Shown here piece after piece: positions 104 through 18,258 of a stretch of 18,258 nt of DNA. This stretch comes from a virus. How positions within the stretch are numbered: the stretch's first letter is position 1; each line of letters starts with the position of its first letter. The notes beneath the pieces were generated by a model that did no database searches, was not told where the DNA came from, and worked only from the letters and a program-made list of their open reading frames with translations. The stretch lies in UHGV virus genome UHGV-0272440; one strand, written 5' to 3'. A program made the position numbers and the translations under genes.

Positions 104-152
104 GGGAGCAGAATAATAATGGTGCGTAATTAATTCTGCAATCTCATCCGTT

Positions 153-1580: not shown

Positions 1581-1678
1581 GACATACCAATAACTCTTGT
1601 CTAAAAAGCCAGCAAGATAAAAAGTCAGTATTCACGACCACCAGCGTGTTTACTGTACTGCACCAAGTTTACAGGTAC

Positions 1679-1703
1679 AAAAAAACCCGCTCAGTGGCGG
1701 GTT
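1679..1703 (-). terminator. Rho-independent terminator, tR'-like, downstream of the late promoter
   Basis: On the minus strand: stem CCCGC (1697..1701), 6-nt loop, stem GCGGG (1686..1690), then a 7-nt U-run (1679..1685). Confidence 0.7.
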
Positions 1704-1737
1704 CTTAAATCTTATCAACGGTAGACATACAAAGCCC

Positions 1738-1778
1738 ATCGTTGTAAAAATCTTATCCATATTTTTTGAAAAACGCAA
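1738..1778 (-). promoter_or_regulatory. Late promoter pR'-like with initial-transcribed pause element (candidate Q engagement site)
   Basis: Minus strand reads TTGCGT (-35, 1773..1778) - 17 bp - TAAGAT (-10, 1750..1755), followed by AACGAT (1738..1743), the same hexamer I recall as the sigma70 pause-inducing element of lambda pR'. Located directly after the Q stop and about 40 nt before the terminator. Confidence 0.5.
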
Positions 1779-1809
1779 GCATCATGTCGTCATCTTCGGC
1801 GAAAACCAT

Positions 1810-2562: not shown

Positions 2563-2575
2563 GCTCGTTCTCCAC

Positions 2576-3571: not shown

Positions 3572-3572
3572 C

Positions 3573-4382: not shown

Positions 4383-4401
4383 ACTTCGTTTCTCCTTTTG
4401 C

Positions 4402-4791
4402 TCAGGCGGCTGCACCCGCCGTTTTCTCGTACTTACTGATAGTGATCTCGACCTTCCCTTCCGGGATAACCGGTCCCCACTCCACCAGCATTCTTTTCAC
4501 CTGACTGTCGTCTTCCCACACACCCGCGTGGGTCAGGGCGTCAAACAGCGCCTTGTTATAGTTGTCCAGATCGCGGATCCGGTTATCTGGAGGAAACAAC
4601 ACGATCGCCACTGAAGCAGGTGCCGACGTTGGTTTCGGCAGGCGACGTAACTGCTCAACTATTGCTGCGCACGCCGCGCTCTGGAATTTTCGCCCCGCCG
4701 CGCTTATCAGACTCTTACCAGCAAACGCCCCTTTGTTGGGGTGTCGCCAGTACGTGTTCACGCTGGGCGGAAAAGGCAGGATCAGCTTCAT
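4402..4791 (-). CDS. rusA: Holliday junction resolvase RusA
   Basis: 129-aa ORF with the RusA hallmarks 'LPFPPSVNTYWR' and acidic catalytic cluster 'RRDLDNYNKALFDALTHAGVWEDDSQV'. Start overlaps the upstream stop (ATGA). Confidence 0.85.
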   Translation of the reverse strand: MKLILPFPPSVNTYWRHPNKGAFAGKSLISAAGRKFQSAACAAIVEQLRRLPKPTSAPASVAIVLFPPDNRIRDLDNYNKALFDALTHAGVWEDDSQVKRMLVEWGPVIPEGKVEITISKYEKTAGAAA

Positions 4792-5114
4792 ACTTTCAGG
4801 TCCCTCTCATGTAACCAGTGGGTTGCACGCAGCCTTGCGTTTTCCTCACCGGCAAGCAGTGCGCGGATAATCCCGACCGCCTCGCTGTCGTCGTCCTTCA
4901 CCGCGGTATGAAGCGTTATCCCCCGGGCCACGCCACGCTTTATCGTGATGACGCCTTTTTTCTCCAGTGCGCGAAGATGCTCCACCGCTGCATTCACTGA
5001 ACGGTATCCCAGCATGGTTGCCACCTCCTGATTGGTTGGCGGGAAGCCACGTTCTTTCTGATAAGAAATCAGCATATCCAGCACCTGCTGCTGGCATTGA
5101 GTTAACGTCGTCAT
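4788..5114 (-). CDS. LexA N-terminal DNA-binding-domain protein lacking the S24 peptidase domain
   Basis: 108 aa; aligns with the LexA winged-helix region: 'LTQCQQQVLDMLISYQKERGFPPTNQEVATMLGYRSVNAAVEHLRALEKKGVITIKRGVARGI' versus LexA '[63 protein letters not shown]'. No Ser/Lys catalytic domain follows. Confidence 0.7.
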   Translation of the reverse strand: MTTLTQCQQQVLDMLISYQKERGFPPTNQEVATMLGYRSVNAAVEHLRALEKKGVITIKRGVARGITLHTAVKDDDSEAVGIIRALLAGEENARLRATHWLHERDLKV

Positions 5115-5764
5115 GCCGCCATCTCCCTGACCAGTTTTTCCGCCTGCTGGCGAACCTGCGCCAGAAACGCCTCACCACATGCCTCAAGTTCATCGCGCCC
5201 GATGTAGCTGATTGCCGGTCCCTTCCAGGTCTTGTCAAAAACAGCAATAGCACCAGCGAAAAAAGCTCCTGTCGGTACCTGCTTCTCGTCTTTCGGGATA
5301 AACCAGACAGGCAGTTCAAAACCAATACGCCCGCGAATAAAAGCAATATGATCTGCATCTTCCGGCCACCACACTTCGCTGGTGGCAGCTTTGATCAGGA
5401 AAACATAGCGCCCGCCCTTATCACGCATGGCACTGGCATGTTTCATGATGTAACGCATGCCGGTGATGTATTGCCCCTCATGCTGACTGGCGCGGCTGTA
5501 TGGGGGATTACCAAAGGCAGCACCTTTAAGCTCCGCAAGACGTTCTGACCAGTCATGCGCAAGCGCGTTGTCTTCCGCCGTGTAATACGCGGCACATTTG
5601 GCGTTATCACCGTCAGTGAACAGATCCAGAACAAACGGGCCAAACAGGGTGTTAATTCCCCAGAAAATGTTGTCCGGCGTGCGCCACTGATCGCCCACTT
5701 CCTTCAGTTCATGGGCTGGTTTGTTCCGCAGTTCCACCAGCGCCTGGCAATATTTATTACTCAT
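5111..5764 (-). CDS. Phage N6-adenine DNA methyltransferase (Dam-type, NPPY motif), orphan
   Basis: Contains 'WRTP' and 'FGNPPYS' motifs typical of the phage Dam family. Start set at the ATG at 5764, which overlaps the upstream stop (TAATG), rather than the ORF-track start at 5797. Confidence 0.8.
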   Translation of the reverse strand: MSNKYCQALVELRNKPAHELKEVGDQWRTPDNIFWGINTLFGPFVLDLFTDGDNAKCAAYYTAEDNALAHDWSERLAELKGAAFGNPPYSRASQHEGQYITGMRYIMKHASAMRDKGGRYVFLIKAATSEVWWPEDADHIAFIRGRIGFELPVWFIPKDEKQVPTGAFFAGAIAVFDKTWKGPAISYIGRDELEACGEAFLAQVRQQAEKLVREMAA

Positions 5765-6252
5765 TAAGCCCCCACGTAATTCCCTGACAGATACCACTCT
5801 TCACCCGATGCAGCGCGCTTGCTGCTTTTCCGTAAGCACCGCTCACGACGCGCCAGAAAATTGTTTCGTTCTGGCTGGGAGTGGCTTTCACGGAATGCCG
5901 CCATCCACACGGTTGCAGCACGACGGTATAAGCCCCTGGACTCCAGTTCTTCCGCCTGACGGGTCAGGCACAAAATCACACGGGGATCGTTAGTGCCGAC
6001 ATAGAAATTGCGCACAGGTCTGGTTTCACGAACTGGTTGTGGTTCCGGTTCCTGCGCTCTCTCAGTCAGGCGCGGGAAATGTCTGCGTGTATCTCCTTCA
6101 CAACGGTGAGCCACACGCCCACTCTGACGTAACTTGCTTGCTGACTGCAGAACGCGCTGCCGTGAGTAACCTGCAAAAGCATCCGCAATGTCTCCGGAAG
6201 TACACCCCGGATGGGCTTCAATGAATTTCTGAACTTCATTCAAAATACTCAT
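5764..6252 (-). CDS. Hypothetical regulator, N-terminal winged-helix-like with possible PerC-like C-terminal motif; YfdN-like by size and position
   Basis: ORF of about 162 aa. ATG at 6252 preceded by AGGGGG; the GTG at 6258 overlaps the upstream stop. Motif 'ELESRGLYRRAATVWMAAF' is reminiscent of PerC/Pch regulators; recalled from memory, low certainty. Confidence 0.45.
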   Translation of the reverse strand: MSILNEVQKFIEAHPGCTSGDIADAFAGYSRQRVLQSASKLRQSGRVAHRCEGDTRRHFPRLTERAQEPEPQPVRETRPVRNFYVGTNDPRVILCLTRQAEELESRGLYRRAATVWMAAFRESHSQPERNNFLARRERCLRKSSKRAASGEEWYLSGNYVGA

Positions 6253-6254
6253 AA

Positions 6255-7247
6255 TCACCCCCTGAATCCTGCCGGGATCTGGCTGTAGTCCACGTTGTCG
6301 TAACTGGCTTTGAAGTACGGGTCTTCGCGTTTTTCTGTGTACGTGCTGACGGACGGCGATAAGCGCAGGGAAAGCTCATCCCATTTTTCCCGCAGCTTCG
6401 ACGGGCTGAGCACGTTACGGCACCAGAACGGATCGCGGCTGACGCGGCTGTACATCTCGCAGATTTGTTTGTGAGTACGCCCATCCTGTACACACATCAG
6501 GCGAATTTCGTTTGCCCAGGCTGTCCAGTTCGGTTCTTTAGGACGTACCACTTCGCCGTCACATTCGGCGGCCTGCTCGTACAGAGCGATGATTTTTTTC
6601 CAGAGCCACTGTGCGCAGGTCAAATCATCCTGCGTTCCCCACTGGCGCTTTTTAGGGCTGAATACAACCGCATCAGGATGGCGAGTTAAAAAATCCTGTT
6701 CAGCCATCTGCGTGTCCGGTTGCGAAGCGTCCGGACGAGAAGAGGTTTTATTCTCTGTAGTAATCTCTGTTGTATTCTCTGTAAGATCATTGGGCCATTT
6801 TGACCCGATGACAGCGTGTCGTTTTGAACCAATGGATCGTGTCATTTTGCGCTCATCCATCAGGTCACTTTGACCCGATGGAGAGGTGCATTTTGACCTG
6901 ATGGATTCGTTCACTTTGACCTCTTCTAAAAGCTCACTTTCATAGTTGATCGTGTAGAAGTTGGTCATGTCACGCTTCGATTTATTGAGTTGCTCGCGAC
7001 GCAAAACCCCAAGTGATTTCAGGCTTGCAAATGTGCGTTTCAGAGTGGACTCTGACCAGAACGGAAACTGCTCCAGCCACTGTTCTGTCGTGTTATAAAC
7101 CCAGCGAATTCCGCCATGCTCAGTGCCTGAATTCGTTTCATTCAGCCAGTAATGAAGCTGCTGCAACACAATTGCCTCATTCAGACCAATACGGCATGCA
7201 AGATCACGATTTATCACAATGGGCTGGGATGTCATTAACAGGCTCAT
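6255..7247 (-). CDS. Phage replication initiation protein (O-like functional analogue) containing ori iterons
   Basis: 330-aa ORF with GGAGG Shine-Dalgarno; N-terminal helix-turn-helix-like region; 6 to 7 direct repeats embedded in the coding sequence (lambda O/ori arrangement). The called product is positional and architectural, not a homology match. Confidence 0.6.
   Translation of the reverse strand: MSLLMTSQPIVINRDLACRIGLNEAIVLQQLHYWLNETNSGTEHGGIRWVYNTTEQWLEQFPFWSESTLKRTFASLKSLGVLRREQLNKSKRDMTNFYTINYESELLEEVKVNESIRSKCTSPSGQSDLMDERKMTRSIGSKRHAVIGSKWPNDLTENTTEITTENKTSSRPDASQPDTQMAEQDFLTRHPDAVVFSPKKRQWGTQDDLTCAQWLWKKIIALYEQAAECDGEVVRPKEPNWTAWANEIRLMCVQDGRTHKQICEMYSRVSRDPFWCRNVLSPSKLREKWDELSLRLSPSVSTYTEKREDPYFKASYDNVDYSQIPAGFRG
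6795..6945. repeat. Iteron array (candidate replication origin) inside the initiator gene
   Basis: Direct repeats with consensus about CAYTTTGACCYGATGG: 'ccattttgacccgatg' (6795..6810), 'tcactttgacccgatgg' (6865..6881), 'gcattttgacctgatgg' (6888..6904), 'tcactttgacctc' (6911..6923), plus degenerate copies near 6819..6835, 6842..6858 and 6933..6945. Confidence 0.75.
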
Positions 7248-7468
7248 GCCGCACCTCCGAGATGCTTCATGTTTTTTCCGGAGCGAAAGGCTATAAGCGG
7301 CATACTGACGCGGTAATTACGGCCCAGCGGTTCACAAATCACCTTCTGGCATTCACGGTCAACCAGGCTAACACGTAGAACATGCCCTGCAGGCGTGGTG
7401 TACCACTGACCCGGACGAGGACAACGGAAAGTATGATTGGTAAACCGTTTGAAAATATTCCGGATCAT
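7244..7468 (-). CDS. hypothetical small protein (74 aa), translationally coupled on both sides
   Basis: ATG at 7468 overlaps the upstream stop (ATGA) and its own stop overlaps the initiator ATG (ATGA). No recognisable family. Confidence 0.4.
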   Translation of the reverse strand: MIRNIFKRFTNHTFRCPRPGQWYTTPAGHVLRVSLVDRECQKVICEPLGRNYRVSMPLIAFRSGKNMKHLGGAA

Positions 7469-8616
7469 TTGCGCCCCCTTACCTCTGAAGGGTTCAGCGA
7501 CAAATTTATGAGACTGGCCAGTAGCGCCGCGTCGTTGATGCGGTCATACAGACTTACAGCCAGCGGGGATTCGGCTTTTGCCAACATGGGATAAAGCTGC
7601 TGCAGCCAGACCTGATGAATTGATGAAATGTAGGAATAGAGAACGCTGGCGTTATGTGCAACGTCGCTCGGTACAGAGGGCTTTGAAAGCTGTTTCTCCA
7701 TCTGGTTAAAGGCATTGATGTATGCCTCTTTGAACTGGGCAGCACGTTTACCCGTGAAACCCATAGCAAGAAACGCAAAACCGTCGCGTGTGATTTGGTA
7801 GCAAGGAAGTTTGCGACCTGTGCAATCAGTGTAATCACTCACCGAAAAATTGCGGGCAGTGAATGATGCTGAGCATTCAAGCGTGCGGATCTTTTTCAGT
7901 ACATCGTCATGACGTTTAGAGAAGAAGTCAGCAACAGCCAAAGAAGATGTAACAGCCTGACCATCAACGATGGCAATTTCAGGTTGAGAGATGGTTGGGA
8001 GAGTAGTCATGGTGACAGCCCCGGTAGTCAGTTTTTTAGAAAACTCACCACATGGGACGCCAATCACAGAGGTGGTGAGACGTACAGGGTTGGCGTTACC
8101 GGAGACTACCGAACCCGGCCCGACCGAAGTCGGCCCTGTACGCCACACCATAATTTGGGCGTAGCAATGCTCATGACACGAAAAAACCGCATGAGCGCGG
8201 TTATGCTCAGTAATCAATTTCAGGACGCCAATCCCGGCACCCGCTTTATAAGGTGCCTGAACAGTGTAACGTCCCGGAATGGCAGAATCAATGTGCTGGT
8301 GGTCCTTCACACTCAACAAAATCACGCCTGAATTTCCACAAAGGACTAAAGCACTCATGCGGGTAGTCTTTGCGAAGATAGATAACGCGCTGTGTTTCTG
8401 GCTCCCAACGAATAACATGAACATAAAGTCCTCTTCCGTCACGAAACCAGCGGTTAAGTTCCTGCACAACTCGCCCCCCACAGTCAGGTAAAGTTCTCTG
8501 TGGTTACTTACAGCCAGGTGATTTGGTAATCTGCATTCATGCCGTAACAACAGGTGTGCAGCGACACTGACCACCAGCTGTTGCGACAAACGGTTATTTG
8601 CCGTTAAACTGTTCAT
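7465..8616 (-). CDS. Rha-domain phage regulatory protein with an uncharacterised N-terminal region of about 200 aa
   Basis: C-terminal half ('IAIVDGQAVTSSLAVADFFSKRHDDVLKKIRTLE...YQITRDGFAFLAMGFTGKRAAQFKEAYINAFNQMEKQL') matches the Rha/phage-regulatory domain. The ATG at 8616 overlaps the upstream stop (ATGA) with GGAGA upstream. The internal ATG at 8010 is an alternative start that would give a roughly 180-aa Rha protein. Confidence 0.55.
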   Translation of the reverse strand: MNSLTANNRLSQQLVVSVAAHLLLRHECRLPNHLAVSNHRELYLTVGGELCRNLTAGFVTEEDFMFMLFVGSQKHSALSIFAKTTRMSALVLCGNSGVILLSVKDHQHIDSAIPGRYTVQAPYKAGAGIGVLKLITEHNRAHAVFSCHEHCYAQIMVWRTGPTSVGPGSVVSGNANPVRLTTSVIGVPCGEFSKKLTTGAVTMTTLPTISQPEIAIVDGQAVTSSLAVADFFSKRHDDVLKKIRTLECSASFTARNFSVSDYTDCTGRKLPCYQITRDGFAFLAMGFTGKRAAQFKEAYINAFNQMEKQLSKPSVPSDVAHNASVLYSYISSIHQVWLQQLYPMLAKAESPLAVSLYDRINDAALLASLINLSLNPSEVRGRK

Positions 8617-9164
8617 GCGTTAGTTTCTCCACAGACACAAAACGCCACGACGCCCGGAGCTGCACACTCGCGGGCGTCACTCTTTTCTGGAGCGCAGAAA
8701 ATTTTGTAGACCAGTGCCGCATGCTCCTGGAGCTTCGAAATTGACAGATACAATTCATCATTAATTGCTGTCTGCTCGTGTGGCTCCACTACCCCATCTT
8801 CGATTGCCGAACGAATCTGCTTTGAGTAACTCCCGATCTGTTCGATGACTTCCAGCAGGCGCTGGTTTATATCTGCGTTCTCTACTTCCTCAATTTCAGG
8901 AAGCGATACAAACACCCCACCAGCAGACTGTGCGACAGCATCCGCAATGTAGTGAGTGCCAGCAGCACGCTGTAAAATCATTGCCCATCCCAGCGGGAAA
9001 ATCTGATCGCCATCTGCACGAAGGCGGTTGAATAAAGCGTTCTCTGTAACATCCAGCCACTCAGCAGCTTCAGCGTAACCCCCTGGCAACGCCGCGATGG
9101 TTTTTCTGACAGCTTTCACGTACCACTCAGGCTGTTTTTCCACTTTCCAGTGATGATTACCCAC
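8613..9164 (-). CDS. Putative CII-like/YdaT-family regulatory protein
   Basis: 183-aa ORF immediately downstream of cro. GTG start with strong AGGAGG Shine-Dalgarno 6 nt upstream. Family assignment is from position and recollection of YdaT-like proteins following cro-like genes; not verified. Confidence 0.4.
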   Translation of the reverse strand: MGNHHWKVEKQPEWYVKAVRKTIAALPGGYAEAAEWLDVTENALFNRLRADGDQIFPLGWAMILQRAAGTHYIADAVAQSAGGVFVSLPEIEEVENADINQRLLEVIEQIGSYSKQIRSAIEDGVVEPHEQTAINDELYLSISKLQEHAALVYKIFCAPEKSDARECAAPGVVAFCVCGETNA

Positions 9165-9417
9165 GGCTTACCTCCTGTTCCTGTGGTTTAAACCCATTCT
9201 GGTTTTGGCTAGATTGAAAACGTGCCGGATAAAGAATCTGCATTTCGCTGATTTCACCCTTAAAAAAATTGGCCAGACGTTCTGCAAGATCGATAGATGG
9301 AATTTGTTCCAGTCTTTCAATACGACTCAGCGTCGCTGGATTGACCTGAACGCCAGCAGCAACATGCTGCAAAGTAAATCCGTGCGCCTTACGCACATTC
9401 CGTAATGGTGATTGCAT
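9157..9417 (-). CDS. Cro-like helix-turn-helix transcriptional regulator
   Basis: 86 aa; XRE-type HTH 'FTLQHVAAGVQVNPATLSRIERLEQIPSIDLAERLANFF'; GGAGGT Shine-Dalgarno; divergent from the repressor gene. Confidence 0.7.
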   Translation of the reverse strand: MQSPLRNVRKAHGFTLQHVAAGVQVNPATLSRIERLEQIPSIDLAERLANFFKGEISEMQILYPARFQSSQNQNGFKPQEQEVSRG

Positions 9418-9514
9418 ATAACCTCCACATATTGCGTGATGAGCATATTATTTCACGCAAATATTTTGCGCAAGTTGATTTGCTTAACGCGCAATAAAGA
9501 AATGTAATAAACGC
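9418..9514. promoter_or_regulatory. Divergent immunity promoter/operator region (OR-like)
   Basis: Inverted repeat TTGCGTGA...TCACGCAA (9435..9463), self-complementary TTGCGCAA (9469..9476) and GCGCAA (9492..9497). Candidate cro promoter on the minus strand: TTGCGC (-35, 9471..9476) - 17 bp - TAATAT (-10, 9448..9453), overlapping these repeats. Confidence 0.5.
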
Positions 9515-10207
9515 ATGAACATAGGAAACCGAGTCAGACAACTTCGCCAGGCGAAGAACATGAAAATCGCCGATCTCGCTGAAGCAATAGGAGTGGATGC
9601 GGCGAATATCTCACGCCTGGAAACAGGTAAGCAGAAACAATTCACTGAACAAGCCCTGAGTAATATTGCCAAGAGCTTAGGTGTTGATATTGCTGATCTC
9701 TTTACCTCAGACTTCAAAAGTAATACTGTATGTAAAAACAGTATTAGTGAGGATGTTGCGCAGGTGAAGGATGTATTCCGTATTGAAATGCTGGATGTCA
9801 GTGCCAGTGCGGGAAATGGCCTTATCCAGGGCGGTGATGTCATTGATGTGATTCATGCCATTGAATACAGAACTGATAATGCTGTATCGATGTTTGGTGG
9901 ACGGCCAGCCAATCACATTAAAGTTATCAACGTTCGTGGGGACAGTATGTGTCCAACCATTGAGCCAGGAGATCTCATCTTCGTTGATGTCAGTATCAAT
10001 CAGTTTGATGGAGATGGTATCTATGTATTTGGTTTTGATGATAAAATTTATGTCAAACGACTGCAAATGATACCTGACAAACTACTGGTGATTTCTGATA
10101 ACCAGATTTACCGTGAATGGGGAATTACCAGCGAAAATGAACACCGGTTTATGGTCTTTGGAAAGGTCTTAATCAGCCAGTCACAAACCATTAAGCGACA
10201 CAATTAA
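9515..10207 (+). CDS. CI-type prophage repressor (HTH plus S24 LexA-like autopeptidase domain)
   Basis: 230 aa; N-terminal HTH 'MKIADLAEAIGVDAANISRLETGK'; C-terminal S24 motifs 'VRGDSMCPTIEPGDLIFVD' (Ser nucleophile) and 'YVKRL' (Lys). Confidence 0.85.
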   Translation: MNIGNRVRQLRQAKNMKIADLAEAIGVDAANISRLETGKQKQFTEQALSNIAKSLGVDIADLFTSDFKSNTVCKNSISEDVAQVKDVFRIEMLDVSASAGNGLIQGGDVIDVIHAIEYRTDNAVSMFGGRPANHIKVINVRGDSMCPTIEPGDLIFVDVSINQFDGDGIYVFGFDDKIYVKRLQMIPDKLLVISDNQIYREWGITSENEHRFMVFGKVLISQSQTIKRHN

Positions 10208-10227
10208 CCCTTACCTCCTCATCAATT

Positions 10228-10249
10228 AGCCACCCAAAGGTGGCTTTTC
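10228..10249 (+). terminator. Rho-independent terminator after the repressor gene
   Basis: Stem AGCCACC (10228..10234), loop CAAA, stem GGTGGCT (10239..10245), then TTTT (10246..10249). Confidence 0.65.
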
Positions 10250-10259
10250 ATTACCCTTT

Positions 10260-10301
10260 AAATTGCATATCTCGCAACAAAAACACTTGCATAATGCGCA
10301 A
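10260..10301 (+). promoter_or_regulatory. Candidate early-left promoter/operator (pL/OL-like)
   Basis: Two 15-bp units of form TTGCA-N5-CGCAA ('TTGCATATCTCGCAA' 10263..10277; 'TTGCATAATGCGCAA' 10287..10301) sharing the CGCAA half-site with the OR repeats; -10-like CATAAT at 10290..10295. The promoter assignment is an inference. Confidence 0.35.
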
Positions 10302-10715
10302 CTTCATTTTATCTTTCTTTCCAGACAAACAAACAAGGTACTAACAAAATTTGGTTGTAACACGGCGTATGGCACATGCGTCGTTAGCGGTCTGGGGACG
10401 TTAAAGGGGACAATCCACTCCTTGCTCGGGCAAACAAACCAGGTAGCCGGAATGTGCAAGTCAATGATGATGCTGATAAGACGCCTAACCAGCGTGGCGA
10501 TTCGGTTTGACGCCTGGGAAGAGACCAGGGTGCAACGATGAGGGCATTTATGGAGCCGCGACAAAGTGTGGTGCCGTAACTGGCTAAGTGCTCTCAGCGT
10601 TGTGGTAATCCGCGAAATGGCGCGGCGGTAAGTATGGCGGGGTTACTCTTTCCCCGTTGAGGACACCGGATTGTCAGGTTGACCATACGCCTGAGTGACA
10701 ACCCCACCACAACAG

Positions 10716-10772
10716 CCACTGCTTTGGCGGTACCAGTTTGTACCCTTGCTTCCGGCTGGTACCGCTCTTTTT
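10716..10772 (+). ncRNA. DicF-like small RNA ending in an intrinsic terminator
   Basis: 'CTTTGGCGGTACCAGTTTGTACCC' closely parallels the 5'/seed region of E. coli DicF as I recall it ('GTTTGGCGGTATCAGTTTTACTCC'). Followed by a perfect 10-bp hairpin GCGGTACCAG (10727..10736) / CTGGTACCGC (10756..10765) and TCTTTTT. The 5' boundary is approximate. Confidence 0.5.
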
Positions 10773-10778
10773 ACAAAA

Positions 10779-10859
10779 CAGAGAAGAGCATCACCGGACG
10801 ACGGGCTCATAACCCAATCCATCCGGGCGGCAGCCACCGCAGGTGTTCTTCTCTGTTTT
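10779..10859 (+). terminator. Second large hairpin followed by a U-run (terminator/attenuator-like) in the early-left leader
   Basis: 12-bp stem CAGAGAAGAGCA (10779..10790) / TGTTCTTCTCTG (10844..10855, one G-U pair) enclosing a structured 53-nt loop, followed by TTTTGT. Confidence 0.4.
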
Positions 10860-10909
10860 GTGGAGAAACTAATCGGCCTTGCAGGGTCGATATGATGAGG
10901 AGCAGCAAA

Positions 10910-11272
10910 ATGGCTAGCGAACGCAGTACTGATGTGCAGGCATTTATCGGGGAGCTGGACGGCGGCGTATTTGAAACCAAAATCGGCGCAGTTCTCAGTG
11001 AAGTCGCTTCCGGTGTGATGAACACGAAAACCAAAGGTAAGGTCTCACTCAACCTGGAAATCGAACCATTTGATGAGAACCGTGTGAAAATCAAACACAA
11101 ACTCTCATATGTTCGCCCGACTAACCGCGGGAAAATTTCTGAAGAAGACACCACCGAAACACCGATGTATGTCAATCGCGGTGGTCGCCTGACTATTCTG
11201 CAGGAAGACCAGGGACAATTACTGACTCTTGCCGGTGAACCTGACGGAAAACTCCGCGCAGCAGGTCATTAA
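10910..11272 (+). CDS. hypothetical early-left protein (YfdP-like by size and position)
   Basis: 121-aa ORF from the ATG at 10910 with GAGGAG Shine-Dalgarno 8 nt upstream. The ORF-track start at 10679 would run through the terminator hairpins and is rejected. Confidence 0.55.
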   Translation: MASERSTDVQAFIGELDGGVFETKIGAVLSEVASGVMNTKTKGKVSLNLEIEPFDENRVKIKHKLSYVRPTNRGKISEEDTTETPMYVNRGGRLTILQEDQGQLLTLAGEPDGKLRAAGH

Positions 11273-11337
11273 TATCGTTCTTAATTAACTGATTATTTAT
11301 CTCATCACTGAATATCTTTATATAGTGAGGACTTATT

Positions 11338-12162
11338 ATGTCTCAGAACTTAGACGCAACCGCAATTAATCAAATCCATGCTCTTATTTCTGCTCAGGAT
11401 GTTAATGAAATTATCAGTAAGATTGGTGCCGATGCTGTGGCATTGCCTGAGAATTTCCGCATTCATGATCTGGAAAAATTTAATTTAAATCGCTTCCGTT
11501 TCCGTGGTGCGCTTTCCACTGCCAGCATTGATGACTTTACCCGTTATTCTAAAGATCTTGCAGATGAAGGCACCCGCTGCTTTATCGATGCCGATAATAT
11601 GCGAGCCATCAGTGTGCTTAACCTGGGTACTATTGATGAACCAGGTCACGCAGATAACACCGCCACTCTCAAACTGAAAAAGACAGCACCGTTCTCTGCC
11701 CTGTTGTCTGTTAACGGCGAGCGTAACTCCCAGAAGTCACTAGCAGAATGGATTGAAGACTGGGCCGACTACCTTGTGGGCTTTGATGCTAATGGTGACG
11801 CCATTCAGGCAACCAAAGCGGCTGCGGCGATCCGTAAAATCACAATTGAAGCGAACCAGACCGCTGATTTTGAAGATAATGACTTCAGCGGCAAACGCTC
11901 CCTGATGGAGTCTGTCGAAGCGAAGACCAAAGACATTATGCCAGTGGCATTTGAATTTAAATGCGTTCCGTTTGAAGGTCTGAAAGAACGTCCGTTTAAA
12001 TTACGCCTCAGCATTATCACTGGCGATCGTCCTGTACTGGTTCTGCGCATTATTCAGCTGGAAGCGGTGCAGGAAGAAATGGCTAACGAATTTCGTGATC
12101 TGCTTGTTGAGAAATTCAAAGACAGCAAAGTAGAAACCTTTATTGGTACTTTCACCGCCTGA
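11338..12162 (+). CDS. yfdQ: DUF2303/YfdQ-like protein
   Basis: 274-aa ORF with GTGAGGA Shine-Dalgarno. Length and N-terminus match my recollection of E. coli CPS-53 YfdQ; memory-based, no search run. Confidence 0.5.
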
Positions 12163-12176
12163 TTTCATTACTGCAA

Positions 12177-12198
12177 ATGCCCCTGCGGGGGCATTTAT
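12177..12198 (+). terminator. GC-rich hairpin (possible intrinsic terminator/attenuator) between early genes
   Basis: Perfect 9-bp stem AAATGCCCC (12177..12185) / GGGGCATTT (12190..12198) with loop TGCG. No extended U-run beyond the stem, so terminator function is uncertain. Confidence 0.3.
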
Positions 12199-12289
12199 GG
12201 AAACGTAATTAACTCAATAATCACCGAATGGTGAGGGCTTCCTTTTACCAGAATTCAGCGCGGTGCAGTGCATATACGTGGAGAACAAA

Positions 12290-12826
12290 ATGTCATTTAT
12301 TAAAACTTTTTCCGGGAAGCATTTTTATTATGACAAGATAAATAAAGACGACATCGATATTAACGATATCGCGGTTTCCCTTTCAAATATCTGTCGCTTT
12401 GCCGGTCATCTTTCGCACTTCTACAGCGTCGCCCAACATGCGGTTCTTTGCAGCCAGCTGGTGCCGCAGGAATTTGCTTTTGAAGCGTTAATGCATGATG
12501 CAACAGAAGCGTATTGCCAGGACATTCCCGCACCACTGAAACGTCTTCTTCCTGACTATAAACGGATGGAAGAAAAAATAGACGCCGTAATCCGTGAGAA
12601 ATACGGGTTACCCCCGGTTATGAGCACGCCAGTGAAATATGCCGATCTCATCATGCTGGCAACCGAACGCCGCGATCTCGGACTTGATGATGGCTCTTTC
12701 TGGCCTGTATTGGAAGGTATCCCGGCAACAGAGATGTTCAAAGTTATTCCACTGTCGCCAGGCCATGCCTATGGGATGTTTATGGAACGTTTTAACGAGT
12801 TATCGGAGTTACGCAAATGCGCATGA
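12290..12826 (+). CDS. yfdR: HD-domain phosphohydrolase (YfdR-like 5'-deoxynucleotidase)
   Basis: HD motifs 'SVAQHAV' and 'ALMHDATEAY'. 178 aa from the ATG at 12290 with GGAGA Shine-Dalgarno; the ORF-track start at 12263 is a GTG. Confidence 0.7.
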   Translation: MSFIKTFSGKHFYYDKINKDDIDINDIAVSLSNICRFAGHLSHFYSVAQHAVLCSQLVPQEFAFEALMHDATEAYCQDIPAPLKRLLPDYKRMEEKIDAVIREKYGLPPVMSTPVKYADLIMLATERRDLGLDDGSFWPVLEGIPATEMFKVIPLSPGHAYGMFMERFNELSELRKCA

Positions 12827-13167
12827 ATGTTATCGAAATGGAAGGGTTTCTTCGCGGGAAATGTGTACCGCGAGATCTGAAAGTGAATGAAACAAATGCT
12901 GAGTATCTGGTGCGTAAATTCGATGAAGTACGTGCTGAGGCTCGCAACGAGGGTATTAACTATACCGCAAGCCGTCTTGCTGCTGCTTTCAATCACGGAT
13001 TTATCAATAAGCCTTTGGCTGAAGTTTTCGACGTTACACGCATGATTCTGTCAGCAAAAGAAGAGTTAGCTAATGAATCGCATCCGATTGATGGCCTGTC
13101 CGGTGAATATGCAGAGAAATCCCTTGAAGAATGGGCGGAACAGATTCGCAAAGGAGTTCAGTCATGA
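12817..13167 (+). CDS. hypothetical protein (YfdS-like by position)
   Basis: 116-aa ORF overlapping the upstream stop; GGAG about 8 nt upstream. No recognised domain. Confidence 0.5.
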   Translation: MRMNVIEMEGFLRGKCVPRDLKVNETNAEYLVRKFDEVRAEARNEGINYTASRLAAAFNHGFINKPLAEVFDVTRMILSAKEELANESHPIDGLSGEYAEKSLEEWAEQIRKGVQS

Positions 13168-13397
13168 GCATCCGAACTGAACATGGATTTGGTCCTTCAA
13201 CGGTCGAAGTCGAATGGCTTGATGATTGCCCTAAGTGCCAGCACGGCAAAGCCAAGGTAACAGGATGGTCGGTAACCAAAGATTCTTTGTGGGCGGGTGA
13301 TGAGGCCGTTTGTTCCAAATGCGGTCACAAAGGTGAAATCGATGCTGATGGAGAGAATGCCTGGGTGGAATGGGACGAAATCGAGGAGGCACAATGA
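13164..13397 (+). CDS. small Cys4 zinc-ribbon protein
   Basis: 77 aa from the ATG at 13164 (AAGGAG Shine-Dalgarno, ATGA overlap with upstream stop). Two CxxC pairs: 'CPKC' and 'CSKC'. Confidence 0.55.
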   Translation: MSIRTEHGFGPSTVEVEWLDDCPKCQHGKAKVTGWSVTKDSLWAGDEAVCSKCGHKGEIDADGENAWVEWDEIEEAQ

Positions 13398-14032
13398 GCA
13401 AAATCGACATCGACACACTGGCGCTGCGTGAGGCGGCAGAACGTGCAATTCCGGCAATGGAACGCCTGTTAATGTTGCCAGTTGATGATGATCTGATAAG
13501 TGAACAGGAACTTAAAGATTACGGTGTGGATATTGATGCGCTCAACGCCTTCAAATTTCTGGCCGGACCAGAAACCGTGCTGGCGCTTCTGGATGAACGG
13601 GAAAGAAACCAGCAATACATCAAACGCCGCGACCAGGAGAACGAGGATATTGCGCTTACGGTTGGGAAGCTGCGCGTTGAGCTTGAAGCAGCAAAATCAA
13701 AACTCAACGAGCAGCGTGAGTATTACGAAGGTGTTATCTCGGATGGAAGTAAGCGCATTGCAGAACTGGAAGCACGGGAAATAAAACCAGCCAAAGGTGA
13801 AGTTCTTGTCGTTGTTTCTGGTTTTACTGGTTGCGGAAAAAGCGCCATTGCCGGGGAAATAGAAATCGCGATGAAGGCTATTGGTGTACCGGTTCAGTGG
13901 ACTAATGGCGATGCGGAAAAGCGCATGACAGGAGCTGACTGGTTGACAGCGATTGAGATGTACAAACCAACAGTGCGCATCGTGGAAGTTAATGTGCCAC
14001 GCGCCGCAGGCATTCGCATCAAAGGAGAGTGA
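13394..14032 (+). CDS. coiled-coil protein, Ead/Ea22-like, with a Walker-A-like motif near the C-terminus
   Basis: 212 aa from the ATG at 13394 (GAGGAGG Shine-Dalgarno, ATGA overlap). Charged heptad-like segment 'LRVELEAAKSKLNEQREYYEGVISDGSKRIAELEARE'; 'SGFTGCGKS' fits GxxxxGK[ST]. The Ea22-like label is from memory. Confidence 0.5.
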   Translation: MSKIDIDTLALREAAERAIPAMERLLMLPVDDDLISEQELKDYGVDIDALNAFKFLAGPETVLALLDERERNQQYIKRRDQENEDIALTVGKLRVELEAAKSKLNEQREYYEGVISDGSKRIAELEAREIKPAKGEVLVVVSGFTGCGKSAIAGEIEIAMKAIGVPVQWTNGDAEKRMTGADWLTAIEMYKPTVRIVEVNVPRAAGIRIKGE

Positions 14033-14033
14033 G

Positions 14034-14225
14034 ATGAACGGACAAATATCAATTGTTCGACCGGGAGCATGTGACGATCGCGAGATACGAATGATTATTC
14101 GTCTGGCGATGGGGAAAACAATAACTGCTCTCATTACTCCTGAAAATCTCGCATTAGCATTAACAGGAAAGTCAGACCTGCCAGTAGAGCTAAAGCTGCG
14201 AAATATTGAGATTAAAGTGAAATAG
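14034..14225 (+). CDS. hypothetical small protein (63 aa)
   Basis: ATG at 14034 with AAGGAGAG Shine-Dalgarno, directly after the upstream stop. No recognised domain. Confidence 0.45.
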   Translation: MNGQISIVRPGACDDREIRMIIRLAMGKTITALITPENLALALTGKSDLPVELKLRNIEIKVK

Positions 14226-14227
14226 TT

Positions 14228-14980
14228 ATGAATACTCTTACCAAAGAATGGTTACAGAACACGATTACCGGAATTGAGTCGATAATAGACGATAAATCGT
14301 TTGTATGTAGTGAAATAGCATTCGAAATAGGTCAGGTTAACAACATACTTACCGCATTTAAAATTACACTGGCATCGCTGGCAGCAGTATCGGATGAACG
14401 AGCAGCCTATGAATTATTTATGGAGAAGCGTTTCGGGGAATCTGTAGATCGCCGTAGGGCAAAAAATGGCGATAGAGAATACATGGCATGGGATATGGCG
14501 CTTGGCTGGATTATCTGGTGTCACCGCGCCGCCATGCTTCAGGGTAGCCAACCTGTAAGCCAAACTTACAACTTGCCAGAATTAATCGAAGGCATGGAAG
14601 TTTCCATTGATGTAAGCACTTGTGATGCTGATTTAGGTAATCGCTATTTCGGCACCGTCACCGAGGCGTTAGAACTTGATACAGCCAAGAATGGTTACAT
14701 CCTCCTGGTTCAGGACGCAGAGCCAAACTTCGATGTAAATGGCAACTCTCCGGGAACTCCGGATAGTTGGATAAGCTGTAGTGATCGAATGCCTGAAAAG
14801 GGCCAGAACGTGCTTATTTCGGTGAATTTCGATAGCTCTCTGGTTGAACCGCTAATATGCTCCGCACGCTATACCGGAAGCACCTTTCGGCGCGGAGATG
14901 CAACGATTAAGCCGGGTAATGGTATTGAGCAAGCAACTCACTGGATGCCGCTACCGGAACCGCCGCAGGAGGTGAAGTGA
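14228..14980 (+). CDS. hypothetical protein with possible DUF551-like C-terminal domain
   Basis: 250-aa ORF; C-terminal 'WISCSDRMPEKGQNVLIS...HWMPLPEPP' resembles the DUF551 pattern as I recall it. Uncertain. Confidence 0.45.
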   Translation: MNTLTKEWLQNTITGIESIIDDKSFVCSEIAFEIGQVNNILTAFKITLASLAAVSDERAAYELFMEKRFGESVDRRRAKNGDREYMAWDMALGWIIWCHRAAMLQGSQPVSQTYNLPELIEGMEVSIDVSTCDADLGNRYFGTVTEALELDTAKNGYILLVQDAEPNFDVNGNSPGTPDSWISCSDRMPEKGQNVLISVNFDSSLVEPLICSARYTGSTFRRGDATIKPGNGIEQATHWMPLPEPPQEVK

Positions 14981-15552
14981 TGAACAACTTAATGATCGAC
15001 CTTGAGACAATGGGGAAAAATAAGGATGCACCGATCGTTTCCATTGGCGCGGTGTTCTTCACTCCAGAAACCGGAGACATCGGACAAGAATTCTATACGG
15101 TTGTCAGCCTGGACAGTGCTATGGAGCAAGGGGCCACACCTGACGGCGATACCATCCTGTGGTGGTTGAAACAAAGCCCTGAAGCACGAGCTGCAATCTG
15201 TATTGATGATACTTTGTCGATCAGCGATGCACTCTCTGAACTGAGCCATTTCATTAATCGGCACGCAGGCAATACGAAATATTTAAAAGTTTGGGGTAAC
15301 GGGGCCACCTTCGACAACGTAATTTTACGCGGAGCTTATGAACGAGCAGGACAAATCTGCCCATGGGCGTACTGGAATGATCACGATGTACGCACGATCG
15401 TTACGCTTGGGCGTTCCATCGGATTCGCCCCCAAAATGGACATGCCTTTCGATGGCGAACGGCACAACGCCCTGGCTGATGCTCGTCATCAGGCAAAATA
15501 TGTTTCAGCTATCTGGCAGAAGTTAATTCCTGCCACCAGCACAGAATTATGA
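14980..15552 (+). CDS. DnaQ-like 3'-5' exonuclease (DEDDh family)
   Basis: Exo motifs 'MIDLETMG' (D-x-E), 'VWGNGATFDNVIL' (D) and 'HNALADARHQ' (H-x4-D). ATG at 14980 with AGGAGGTG Shine-Dalgarno; GTG at 14977 is the alternative. Confidence 0.7.
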   Translation: MNNLMIDLETMGKNKDAPIVSIGAVFFTPETGDIGQEFYTVVSLDSAMEQGATPDGDTILWWLKQSPEARAAICIDDTLSISDALSELSHFINRHAGNTKYLKVWGNGATFDNVILRGAYERAGQICPWAYWNDHDVRTIVTLGRSIGFAPKMDMPFDGERHNALADARHQAKYVSAIWQKLIPATSTEL

Positions 15553-15588
15553 TTTTCCCGGGTGCAGCCGGTTTTGATGGAGAAAATT

Positions 15589-15861
15589 ATGAACACCTTG
15601 TTTTTACTGATGGCTGAATTCAATACCCCAAACATTGAGCTGTCAGCTGTATGCCAAAAGTATTTCGGTATGAGCCCTAACACAGCAGAAGCGAAAGCAA
15701 ATGCATGCCAGTTGCCGATCCCGACTTATCGTGTTGGTACATCACAGAAAGCAAAGCGCTGCATCAACATTCAGGATCTTGCTGAATATATAGATAAACG
15801 GCGTGAAGAAGGCAGAATTGAATGGGAGAGGGTAAGAACAAATAGGAAAATAAATAACTAA
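15589..15861 (+). CDS. small DNA-binding protein, excisionase-like/PrtN-like
   Basis: 90 aa from the ATG at 15589 (GGAGA Shine-Dalgarno). Last gene of the early-left operon, the usual xis position. Similarity to PrtN-type proteins is from memory. Confidence 0.45.
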   Translation: MNTLFLLMAEFNTPNIELSAVCQKYFGMSPNTAEAKANACQLPIPTYRVGTSQKAKRCINIQDLAEYIDKRREEGRIEWERVRTNRKINN

Positions 15862-15873
15862 TCTCACAAAAAA

Positions 15874-15895
15874 CCCGCTTCGGCGGGTTAGTTTT
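15874..15895. terminator. Bidirectional Rho-independent terminator between convergent genes
   Basis: Stem CCCGC (15874..15878), loop TTCG, stem GCGGG (15883..15887), flanked by an A-run upstream (U-run on the minus strand) and TTAGTTTT downstream. Confidence 0.7.
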
Positions 15896-16322
15896 CATCT
15901 TTATAATTCTGGGCAATTCGCGCCAGATAGCTCATCACATCATGTTTTCTTGCTTTTTCATGTGCATCGGGATACATAATAGCAATGAGTGAATATTTAT
16001 TCTCATAAAGCTCACCTTGGACATACACAAGACAAGCATCATTATCAGGATCACCTTTCTTGCAGACCCTATCCGGTTGTGGAAGTTTCTCGGGAAACTT
16101 GTTTGGCGGTAGACAAAGATGGATATGCATCAACCCAGCCCGAAAAGCACCATAAGGCTGAGTATACGCAACGTCCCTACCGAAATAATGCGGAAGCTCA
16201 CCGGTTGCTTTGTATCTCTTGAAATCATCAATGATAGAAGACTCTAGCTCCGGGAATTTGAGAAAAATTTCATCAAAAAATTCAGCTCTAGTTTCTGGAT
16301 TAATAGAGACTTCTAGATGCAT
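15888..16322 (-). CDS. YafO-family toxin-like protein (ribosome-dependent mRNA interferase family)
   Basis: 144 aa; blocks parallel to E. coli YafO as recalled: 'HYFGRDVAYTQPY' vs 'DIFGRDALYDDSF', 'HIHLC' vs 'HIHLA', 'ACLVYVQG' vs 'AHLVYCQG', 'SLIAIMYPDAHEKAR' vs 'LLIAILKPEPHKLAR'. Lies in AT-rich DNA. Confidence 0.6.
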   Translation of the reverse strand: MHLEVSINPETRAEFFDEIFLKFPELESSIIDDFKRYKATGELPHYFGRDVAYTQPYGAFRAGLMHIHLCLPPNKFPEKLPQPDRVCKKGDPDNDACLVYVQGELYENKYSLIAIMYPDAHEKARKHDVMSYLARIAQNYKDEN

Positions 16323-16338
16323 GGTCGTCCGCTATCGG

Positions 16339-16878
16339 TTAGTGAAATTGCATCGATTTTAGCTTATTTGATGTGTGACTAGCTAGTGCTGCAATTCCAG
16401 CAAGATCCGCGCGCCCGCTAAAAGTAACAGTTTCTTTAAATATGCTCTTTATGTAATTGTTAAGGCGAGTGACAGATGAGCGAGCTTTAGCAATATGACG
16501 CCAGTAAACCTTCAGTTCTGACCTGATAAATTCAGGCAGAGGCGATTCAATTGTACGCTTCACTTCTTCTTCAAAAGCACGCAGGAACATTTCGCATGCC
16601 TCTGTCGTATCTGTCCCGTTTTTGGAAACAAACTCGCGAGCATCTTGGCTATTAAGATCAATCAAACAGATATAGTAGTCATCTGCTGCAATTGTTAACT
16701 TTTGCAAGATCTCCTTACCCTCTTCCATTTTGCGTGAGAATTCCTCAACAGAAGGAGAGTACTCAAAAGGTTTAGCAATCACAGGGGCTGGCTGGATGAT
16801 GAACTCCTGCGCCATAGCAGCAGGACAAGCCAGAGGCCCGCACAATGCAGCAAAAGTAATGGCGTTAAACGGATTCAT
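16339..16878 (-). CDS. hypothetical protein with hydrophobic N-terminus (possible signal peptide), upstream partner of the YafO-like gene
   Basis: 179 aa; ATG with GAGGT Shine-Dalgarno; N-terminus 'MNPFNAITFAALCGPLACPAAMAQE' is hydrophobic with an AxA-like site but no basic n-region. No resemblance to YafN/Phd-type antitoxins. Confidence 0.5.
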   Translation of the reverse strand: MNPFNAITFAALCGPLACPAAMAQEFIIQPAPVIAKPFEYSPSVEEFSRKMEEGKEILQKLTIAADDYYICLIDLNSQDAREFVSKNGTDTTEACEMFLRAFEEEVKRTIESPLPEFIRSELKVYWRHIAKARSSVTRLNNYIKSIFKETVTFSGRADLAGIAALASHTSNKLKSMQFH

Positions 16879-17481
16879 GGCAACCTCAACTGTTTTACTT
16901 ACTAAGCAATAGCCTTAGCTATTTGGAGCAAAGTCTATAACCGCGGTTGTTTTTGGTCAATCAGATAAGGTAGCAAATGGTGCTTTATGAATAGATATGA
17001 ATAGAAAGAGCAAAACTTCAGGTTCCCAATAGGCTCCCACAAAGTGTATAACTAGTTGTTTTTCAAAAACGGTACATCCTATCGAGCATTGGTGCAACGC
17101 TAAACCAACCACTCCAGTGAACGTCAGTTTTTTCAGGCATTGCGCTGGTTTGGTTGATTTTTTGCATTTCAGAATTACCGTGCATTTTCAAATGTAGAGA
17201 TTATTTTATCGATATATCATGGAGTTATGTTATTCAGCATCACTGTTCAGGAGGCTCAATAACGGGGTACTATACCATAACAACAGGAAGCGCCTGTCTC
17301 ATTGCAAAAGAAAAATGAGATCCTCTCAAGGCATGAAGCTCTCACGAAGTGAAGATCTAATCTTATTAGATGTTAGCGTTGTGAAAAGCAATGATAAACA
17401 ATACAGATTCGACGATAAATAAAAATCACACATTAAACTCCGGTGATATCTCTCCCTGCTAATAGCACTGATAGAGAAAAA

Positions 17482-17509
17482 AGAACCCAATAAGCATTGG
17501 GTTCTTTTA
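17482..17509 (-). terminator. Rho-independent terminator downstream of the IS1-disrupted gene
   Basis: 10-bp stem AGAACCCAAT (17482..17491) / ATTGGGTTCT (17496..17505) with loop AAGC, followed on the minus strand by a U-run (complement of the A-run at 17476..17481). Confidence 0.6.
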
Positions 17510-17545
17510 TGTAATACCTTTCATACCATCGAAGAACTTCACATA

Positions 17546-18120
17546 TTATTTCTCCGATTTAACCCCGAATAAATCATAAATTAATTTAGAAGTACCTGTA
17601 TATATTTTAATCTTTTCCTTTGAGTTTGGGTCAAACGACTTAGCAAAGTCAATTAATTTCGGTGCAGCATCTCGCATTTTGCTTAAAATATCAGGGGCGA
17701 GCGTTCCTTCATTCACCAGATGTGACATCTTATCCAGATAGCCATCAAAATTCATTTCTCCCCCATCTGCCAGACGCTTCATTTCTCCCAGGTACTTCTT
17801 CATATCACGTTGAGATAACTCTTCAAACTGAGCTGTCAGATAGTTCCCATTATGATCATTAATATTCACTTTTTCTGCTCCTGCTAAATCTGTGTAGGCA
17901 CTAGAGTATGAAAGTGAAATCAACAGCGAAGCGAATAATTTTAAGCTGTTGTCATCATATTTCTGACATGCATTAACAAACGTTAAAAAACCAGAACCTA
18001 TTGCTTGCAAATGTATATTCGCTAAAGGTTCATTATCTTTAGATTCCTCATAAAATAGCTGAACCGTGGAGGGAAGGCCATTCTTGGTTTCTACATCAAA
18101 AGTATATCGTTCTATGGGCG
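17546..18120 (-). pseudogene. 3' fragment of an unknown-function gene truncated at its 5' end by IS1
   Basis: The minus-strand reading frame stays open from 18010 up to the IS1 boundary at 18120/18121 and into IS1; it contains no ATG before the boundary, only a TTG at 18010. AT-rich, no recognisable domain. Confidence 0.5.
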
Positions 18121-18258
18121 GGTGATGCTGCCAACTTACTGATTTAGTGTATGATGGTGTTTTTGAGGTGCTCCAGTGGCTTCTGTTTCTATCAGCTGTC
18201 CCTCCTGTTCAGCTACTGACGGGGTGGTGCGTAACGGCAAAAGCACCGCCGGACATCA
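18121..18258 (+). mobile_element. IS1 insertion sequence, left end (continues beyond the window)
   Basis: 18121 onward matches the IS1 left terminus as I recall it: inverted repeat GGTGATGCTGCCAACTTACTGAT followed by the insA leader and coding start. Confidence 0.93.
18176..18258 (+). CDS. insA: IS1 InsA (5' partial)
   Basis: From the GTG at 18176 the translation reads (M)[26 protein letters not shown], the known InsA N-terminus; cut by the window end. Confidence 0.9.

Follow-up and report, generated by a model that had tools for sequence, protein, structure and literature searches.

The AT-rich segment of UHGV-0272440 very probably represents the int-distal end of a lambda-like prophage in dusA, with putative toxin–antitoxin-type cargo and adjoining host DNA

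Positions 15862–18120 of an 18,258-nucleotide stretch of the UHGV virus genome UHGV-0272440 (hereafter the window, meaning the whole stretch analysed) form an AT-rich segment that follows the early-left operon of a lambda-like phage. A sequence-only reading had seen in this segment a distinct accessory island, either horizontally acquired cargo or a replaced integration module. Our analysis supports that interpretation in part: the segment is very probably the int-distal end of a lambda-like prophage inserted in the 5' end of dusA, together with the adjoining host DNA, and carries as cargo a two-gene module of putative toxin–antitoxin type.

Organization of the locus

The last gene of the early-left operon is xis (15589–15861, plus strand; the longest open reading frame (ORF) starts with a GTG at 15562), encoding an excisionase of the PrtN family according to Pfam (PF11112, 84.8 bits), PHROG (1300, “excisionase”, E = 2.5e-40) and the RefSeq annotation of sibling prophages. 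It is followed by a bidirectional intrinsic terminator hairpin (15872–15889, both strands), AACCCGC-TTCG-GCGGGTT, with a 7-bp GC-rich stem and a TTCG loop, which closes the early-left operon on the plus strand and the cargo operon on the minus strand, where TTTTTGTG comes after the hairpin. A terminator scan scored both strands, confirming the bidirectional terminator previously placed at about 15,880. Beyond the hairpin every gene of the segment lies on the minus strand and 16879–17545 is mostly non-coding, so that the strand switch and the long spacers of the sequence-only reading also stand.

The cargo operon comprises two genes. The first, orf179 (16339–16878, minus strand), starts with an ATG preceded by a conserved GAGG and encodes a 179-amino-acid, all-helical protein whose small family (PHROG 8416) is of unknown function. 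The second (15888–16322, minus strand) begins 16 nucleotides (nt) past the end of orf179 and encodes a 144-amino-acid homologue of the YafO-family toxins, RNases of the RelE/ParE superfamily (Pfam PF13957, YafO_toxin). On the other side of orf179 lies a non-coding phage attachment (att) arm (16879–17081) with a candidate cargo promoter, delineated by a promoter scan, repeats and conservation, and then the prophage/host junction itself (17082–17099). The latter is the int-distal att site, spans the dusA codons V-A-P-M-L-D, and was located by BLAST and alignment against Escherichia coli K-12, the ends of phage PhiR40_1 and E. coli JMF1.

The host flank opens with a displaced 5' remnant of dusA (17082–17186, minus strand), namely its first 35 codons, MHGNSEMQKINQ...APMLD, which match the K-12 dusA 5' end and are annotated in siblings as a partial tRNA-dihydrouridine synthase. 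Next come the native yjbM–dusA intergenic region (17187–17545, 35.9% GC), recognised by its identity with JMF1 and containing a terminator-like hairpin after yjbM (17479–17508, minus strand), and the 3' part, 191 codons, of a yjbM-like host DUF2713 gene (17546–18118, minus strand; Pfam PF10897, 291 bits, profile positions 84–235). This gene is truncated by IS1, whose left end (18121–18258, plus strand) was identified from its terminal inverted repeat GGTGATGCTGCCAACTTACTGAT and the start of insA and matches the IS1 of P1 and of many genomes at 99–100% identity. The AT-rich block stops at 18121 because IS1 begins there. It is hence a composite of three parts, phage DNA, junction and native chromosome, and not one island.

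The prophage/host junction and the integrase

Leads were obtained by megablast of the window tail against complete E. coli genomes and phages. Positions 17082–18258 align with the prophage-free strain JMF1, in which dusA is intact, at 99.9% identity (1 mismatch in 1177), and the homology stops exactly at 17081/17082. Positions 17082–18119 are also 92% identical to the yjbM–dusA region of K-12, where the gene order at the same chromosomal position is yjbL-yjbM-dusA-pspG. Being near-identical in prophage-free JMF1, 46% of the supposed island is native chromosome. The proposal of a single acquired cargo island thus holds for the left 54% (15862–17081), which is phage-borne variable cargo, and fails for 17082–18120. 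In sibling genomes, the order reads 3'-5' exonuclease, PrtN-family protein, YafO-family toxin, hypothetical protein, partial tRNA-dihydrouridine synthase, DUF2713, zur, yjbJ, dinF, lexA.

With host homology running from 17082, the boundary of the element falls within the conserved 5' end of dusA, as in elements with a dusA-specific integrase (DAI). An identity block, TCGAGCAT, occupies 17082–17089, and the following positions, 17090–17099, are of host type, TGGTGCAACG, versus AGGAGCAATG in the free-phage attP; the whole site reads TCGAGCATAGGAGCAATG in the attP of the free phages mEp460 and SKA5 and TCGAGCATTGGTGCAACG, the host version, in the window. Strand exchange therefore took place within the shared TCGAGCAT.

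Both ends of the element could be followed in relatives. The genome record of the plaque-forming phage PhiR40_1, 99.8% identical, ends at window position 17099, and at its other end are found a tyrosine integrase and a surrogate for the dusA 5' end, 107 nt long and 81% identical to that of the host. In strain 442/2, which harbours the same prophage, the far end lies about 44.9 kb from the junction and reads DinI, integrase, intact dusA, pspG. The element hence shows a displaced dusA remnant at one end and a surrogate with an integrase beside a restored dusA at the other, as DAI-type elements do, the int end being seen in siblings and lying outside this window.

No integrase follows xis inside the window, and the sequence-only reading had offered a replaced integration module as one explanation. 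This is contradicted by the free phages mEp460 and SKA5, whose maps run exo, xis, cargo on the opposite strand, dusA', int, dinI and tail fibre; the integrase of mEp460 contains the Pfam Phage_integrase domain. Because attP sits between xis and int, int is not next to xis in the lysogen. Integration opens the free-phage map (exo, xis, a variable cargo slot on the opposite strand, attP with its surrogate for the start of dusA, int, dinI, tail fibres) at attP, so that xis and the cargo come to lie at one prophage end and int goes to the other, some 45 kb off, beside a dusA with a phage-rebuilt 5' end. To judge from its siblings, from which its int end is deduced, the integrase of this prophage has not been replaced. 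We found no evidence against this anatomy.

The att arm also contains direct repeats, namely CAATAGsCT (16907 and 17027), CAAAGTsTATAAC (16929 and 17040) and a tandem pair of TATGAATAGA (16986–17005). These are candidate arm-type sites for Int, Xis or IHF, although short two-copy repeats can also arise by chance.

On the host side, both halves of DUF2713 flank the same IS1 in JMF1 (JMF1 locus L022, 5160–5930), the insertion in DUF2713/yjbM occupying the identical position with 100% identity across the junction, and a near-identical junction (98.3%) occurs in strain 600029. The IS1 event is independent of the prophage, since the same insertion is found in prophage-free JMF1, and probably marks a host lineage.

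A variable slot between xis and attP

The full cassette, corresponding to a 1220-nt slot (15862–17081), is present in 48 of 5426 E. coli genomes, and a related PrtN-type xis in 741 of the same set (about 14% of complete genomes). Some part of the slot is matched in 351 genomes, those devoid of the cassette sharing just its last 63–70 nt, i.e. the att arm (17012–17081). The slot is not conserved and syntenic in all relatives, because siblings carry other cargo, such as Panacea pairs; the variability among related prophages that an accessory island would entail is accordingly seen for 15862–17081, and 17082–18120 is simply host DNA. Between conserved flanks, some relatives thus possess this cargo while others lack it or have one of at least three other kinds in its place, which is the behaviour of a moron. 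The unit at 15888–16878 (minus strand) also has a moron layout: it ends in a terminator, has a candidate promoter, deviates in composition and is missing from most sibling phages. The plaque-forming phages PhiR40.1 and PhiR55.1 carry an identical cassette (bioRxiv 10.1101/2025.11.03.685801).

The cargo of sibling slots is always encoded on the strand opposite xis. It consists of hypothetical proteins of 57 and 177 amino acids in mEp460 and O157:H7 PV15-279; of a 57-amino-acid protein, a protein of 128–139 amino acids and a 190-amino-acid Panacea-domain protein in SKA5, PK8566 and O177:H21; and of a 157-amino-acid Panacea-domain protein and a 182-amino-acid protein in 2014C-3338. The 177-amino-acid protein of mEp460 (gp23), of similar length and in the same slot, was considered as a diverged homologue of orf179 and discarded (BLASTP E = 0.19). 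Panacea is a documented antitoxin domain (PMC8832971, PMC10440598). In sibling dusA prophages, PanA-like proteins with this domain adjoin an uncharacterised gene (L006, 3632–4620; L024, 3834–4878; L025 and L026, 4070–5059; all minus strand), and these gene pairs are probable PanAT toxin–antitoxin pairs. In 2014C-3338 (L024, 3800–5400), no dusA-type att core lies within 3 kb of xis and zur directly follows the cargo, which suggests that the att junction was lost by deletion together with the DUF2713 gene, so that this prophage end is “grounded”.

Among the E. coli records matching xis, 54 do so at ≥95% identity and 692 at 80–90%. The cassette occurs in 48 genomes, and no sampled carrier was among the 692 records with the 80–90% allele. 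The xis allele and the cargo thus seem linked, and may be exchanged together as one AT-rich block.

The orf179 and YafO-like gene pair

The second cargo gene belongs to the YafO family, its product scoring 76.5 bits against Pfam PF13957 (gathering cut-off 25) and retaining the motifs HIHL, LVYxQG and LIAIxxPxxHxxAR at 36% identity to K-12 YafO. Its AlphaFold model has a pLDDT of 95 and finds the toxins HigB2, YoeB and HigB as top fold matches in the PDB, weakly (E = 2e-3); a sequence profile search of the PDB gave no meaningful match. YafO is an mRNA-cleaving toxin of the BECR fold, in whose operon the antitoxin gene precedes the toxin gene (PMC11980606).

The family of orf179 is tiny: it comprises 22 clusters when grouped at 90% identity, and 1.84 billion proteins contain 23 representatives. 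Only 2 of 50,697 phage records encode orf179. The AlphaFold model of orf179 (pLDDT 79) begins with a hydrophobic helix, continues in a disordered linker and ends in a helical bundle, and structure and sequence searches returned no informative neighbour of fold or sequence. Two records, PV340560.1 and PV340571.1, annotate orf179 as “YafM antitoxin”, a name unsupported by any family match or by similarity to YafN.

The two genes travel together. We examined eight loci, from Escherichia, the Enterobacteriaceae isolate ENNIH3, Pantoea, Serratia, Yersinia, Photorhabdus, Providencia and Gilliamella (seven genera, four prophage contexts), and in all eight an orf179 homologue lies 3–20 nt upstream of the YafO-like gene, so that the pair is bicistronic, closely spaced and co-occurring. 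Starting from orf179 led to ENNIH3 (same dusA–zur slot), Pantoea vagans (another context) and Serratia marcescens (inside a tail-gene cluster), and starting from YafO-like homologues led to myovirus or siphovirus tail or lysis regions in Yersinia, Photorhabdus, Gilliamella and Providencia, where the gene upstream of the YafO-like gene is 24–41% identical to orf179. Across loci the partner diverges faster (24–74% identity) than the toxin homologue (56–78%). The ratio of non-synonymous to synonymous substitution rates (dN/dS), with synonymous sites near saturation, is about 0.10–0.11 for the YafO-like gene and 0.12–0.16 for orf179; this range of 0.10–0.16 over both cargo genes denotes purifying selection. 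In the P2-like prophage of Yersinia (L015, 1328–2176), a ParD–ParE pair and a further ParD gene lie directly beside the orf179/YafO-like pair; together they form a small toxin–antitoxin cluster within the tail module, where the tail tube gene flanks them on one side and the tape-measure gene on the other.

Given this strict pairing, the faster divergence of the partner and purifying selection, we lean towards reading orf179 and the YafO-like gene as a two-component module of toxin–antitoxin type. In such a module the RNase would halt translation and the upstream protein would control the RNase; expressed from the prophage, the module would make the lysogenic state more stable, or act against superinfecting phages by aborting their infection or excluding them. 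A defence or exclusion role for the cargo, at a location where the sequence-only reading expected such genes, is plausible. The anatomy, the junction, the variability of the slot, the gene pairing and the selection on both genes have been shown, and from them we infer only as a proposal toxicity of the RNase, its neutralisation by the partner, export of the partner and a defence phenotype. PADLOC (PADLOC-DB 2.0) matched no defence model to xis, the YafO-like protein, orf179 or DUF2713.

Several observations weigh against a toxin–antitoxin function. In NCBIfam, the YafO-like protein obtains only a sub-threshold YafO match (75.8 bits versus the 153-bit equivalog cut-off), and is therefore to be regarded as a family member and not as an equivalog of K-12 YafO. 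orf179 has no match in Pfam, NCBIfam or PADLOC, and its family profile shows no relationship to K-12 YafN (hhalign probability 3%). The promoter-like site upstream of the operon (16960–16932, minus strand) agrees with the consensus at 9 of 12 positions, and such sites are no commoner here than in shuffled sequence. In the literature searched there was no experiment on the pair. The N-terminus of orf179, read heuristically by residue pattern, resembles a cleavable Sec signal, with the h-region AITFAALCGPLA, a Pro at position -5 and A-M-A before Q; divergent members that we read keep the hydrophobic N-terminal segment, several of them with basic residues before it and small residues or AxA-like motifs after it. 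With such a signal-like N-terminus, mature orf179 would be periplasmic, apart from the cytoplasmic RNase, and a periplasmic protein is unable to neutralise a cytoplasmic RNase in the usual manner.

Other readings of orf179 were tried and set aside. A YafN-like antitoxin of the Phd/YefM type is at odds with the hhalign result and the lack of a Pfam match. A lipoprotein was rejected by eye, the residues before both Cys being unlike a lipobox. A membrane anchor of N-out/C-in topology fits less well than a cleavable signal, because in divergent members basic residues precede the hydrophobic segment and AxA-like motifs follow. Roughly the first 32 residues (window 16783–16878, minus strand), MNPFNAITFAALCGPLA(C/Q)PAAMAQxFIxQPAP, are near-invariant in the 23 closer members while their codons vary synonymously, and this constraint is unusually strong, more so than a plain signal peptide needs.

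The precursor may be the active neutraliser, the segment may after all be a membrane anchor, or the pair may do something non-classical. A new class of toxin–antitoxin or defence system, in which the neutraliser would be a Sec-exported or membrane-inserted protein and the RNase would be checked only by fresh, unexported precursor, strikes us as improbable. If the Sec-export reading were true, continuous export, and not proteolysis, would make the antitoxin labile, the toxin would be released by lost expression or by an upset of the envelope or of Sec, as on phage takeover, DNA injection or loss of the prophage, and the near-invariant N-terminal 32 residues would be the functional heart of the switch.

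Composition of the AT-rich segment

By direct counts, the GC content is 0.398 in 15862–18120 versus 0.494 in 1–15861. The segment is close to the GC minimum among all 2259-nt stretches of the window (the lowest, starting at 15783, has 0.394), and relative to seven non-overlapping upstream stretches of this size (0.459–0.545) its z-score is -3.0. At third codon positions, the GC content (GC3) amounts to 0.338 in the YafO-like gene, 0.400 in orf179 and 0.335 in the yjbM fragment, versus a mean of 0.504 (standard deviation 0.071) for 23 upstream phage genes. The deviation in composition and codon usage expected by the sequence-only reading was thus confirmed, and the GC3 of the cargo genes departs from that of neighbouring phage genes as that of morons does, with xis and the immunity region similarly low.

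The onset of AT-richness was placed less accurately. The best single change-point of the early-left arm (maximum likelihood) is 15572, the start of xis, which itself has 41.7% GC, so that the change begins within the operon and not after it. Nor is the block homogeneous, since a second step near 16888 takes the GC content from 0.437 to 0.371. The phage part (15862–17081) has a GC content of 0.422, which is not below that of the immunity region (9229–10446, <0.42), and the truly AT-rich portion (0.369) is host DNA. In K-12, yjbL–yjbM have 0.348–0.366 GC, against 0.52–0.55 for zur, dusA and lexA–dinF; the chromosome right of the junction is intrinsically AT-rich. The slot itself ranges from 0.414 to 0.428 in every sibling checked, regardless of cargo.

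Elsewhere in the window, the cro–cI immunity region (9229–10446) forms a second AT-rich trough, and the strongest GC change-point of the whole window falls at about 9101 (0.517 to its left, 0.447 to its right). At the far left, a tRNA-Met (CAT; 28–103, minus strand) adjoins a phage DNA-methyltransferase and late-regulatory region and is presumably phage-borne.

Alternative explanations

The cargo could encode an exported periplasmic phage protein, for instance one for superinfection exclusion or envelope modification, with which the YafO-like RNase co-travels or is otherwise linked, kept harmless by low activity, by host YafN or by an unrecognised small antitoxin. We hold this to be unlikely, while granting that the signal-peptide-like N-terminus extends across the orf179 family, that orf179 is not similar to any antitoxin family, and that prophage exclusion proteins are typically envelope proteins. 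The strict pairing, at 3–20 nt in eight of eight loci from seven genera and in unrelated phage contexts, speaks against it, as independent morons would be expected to separate. Moreover, the cargo unit contains no other ORF, and a permissive Rfam scan of 15500–18258 yielded two chance-level matches far below gathering scores and no RNA antitoxin or small RNA; restraint by host YafN would, in addition, require that Gilliamella and similar hosts possess a compatible one.

A second account attributes the AT-richness to structure alone: the DNA of an attachment region has to bend and to bind IHF, Xis and Int, and the ORFs in it would be decaying or non-functional filler. The AT-richness of xis, slot and att arm in every sibling checked, whatever the cargo, and the change-point at the xis start would suit it; yet both ORFs are intact, are under purifying selection and show a conserved ribosome-binding site and synonymous variation, and the pair is conserved outside att contexts, e.g. 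inside tail-gene clusters, which makes this account very unlikely. Finally, that the whole of 15862–18120 is one acquired island or a replaced integration module at the integrase position, as its uniformly low GC relative to the rest of the window and the lack of an integrase after xis had suggested, is already refuted by the empty-site comparison, 17082–18120 lying beside intact dusA in prophage-free JMF1 and being found also in K-12, and is further opposed by the integrase across attP at the other prophage end and by the second GC step.

Implications

The finding is largely ordinary. A compositional “island” perceived in raw sequence resolves into the end of a prophage, its att junction and native DNA of the host, and the “missing” integrase is explained by the position of attP in dusA-integrating lambdoid phages. 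Its modest newness lies in the uncharacterised, apparently exported partner seen with this YafO subfamily at all loci examined and in the slot as a hot spot for toxin–antitoxin-like cargo. The xis–attP slot of common E. coli prophages is repeatedly filled with two-gene modules of this kind, and is hence a convenient place to search for prophage defence or stabilisation genes. In prophages of Enterobacterales and Orbales, an entire subfamily of YafO-type toxins is strictly paired with an exported-looking helical protein and not with a YafN-type antitoxin; should orf179 indeed control the toxin, it would do so by an unusual mechanism. Plaque-forming PhiR40.1 and PhiR55.1, which carry the cassette, allow a direct test of this hypothesis.

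Comparison with known systems

The exclusion and abortive-infection systems of the lambda RexAB and P22 SieA type offer an analogy only. They too are prophage-expressed, lie beside regulatory or recombination modules and combine an envelope component with a cytoplasmic effector, but no homology to the cargo and no PADLOC match was found.

PanA–PanT modules (PMC8832971, PMC10440598) are closer in position: in SKA5, PK8566, O177:H21 and 2014C-3338 they fill the same xis–attP slot, and neither their strand nor their gene order, presumed antitoxin first, differs from that of the cargo. They have no sequence relation to orf179 or the YafO-like protein, and are alternative cargo, not homologues.

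With YafN–YafO of the K-12 dinB operon, the cargo shares a PF13957 toxin with conserved motifs and a partner gene immediately upstream on the same strand after a short gap. However, orf179, with 179 residues, an all-helical structure and a signal-like N-terminus, is unrelated to the 97-amino-acid, Phd/YefM-type YafN; the cargo toxin homologue, with 144 residues, has an extra N-terminal segment relative to K-12 YafO and falls below the NCBIfam equivalog cut-off; and the cargo pair is phage-borne, whereas the K-12 pair belongs to the SOS dinB operon. As orf179 does not qualify as a YafN-type antitoxin, the pair is not a YafN–YafO system.

The cargo is organized like lambdoid morons (lambda lom and bor, those of HK97 and HK022), as an opposite-strand unit with its own terminator, lower GC content and patchy occurrence among relatives. 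It differs from them in its place, the xis–attP interval and not the late or b region, and in a promoter that is only a weak consensus match.

The closest parallel concerns the element as a whole. The same arrangement has been described for prophages and genomic islands with a dusA-specific integrase (Farrugia et al. 2015, PMC4482086). These elements, which include mEp460 and PhiR40_1 in E. coli, integrate like the one in the window in the conserved 5' end of dusA (the APML codons), leave a displaced dusA 5' remnant at one end and a phage surrogate 5' end with a tyrosine integrase by dusA at the other, as does this type of prophage, and likewise have imperfect direct repeats at their junctions. 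There is no essential difference, the window covering the int-distal end and the integrase itself lying outside it; the prophage end and its junction are those of a textbook dusA-integrating element.

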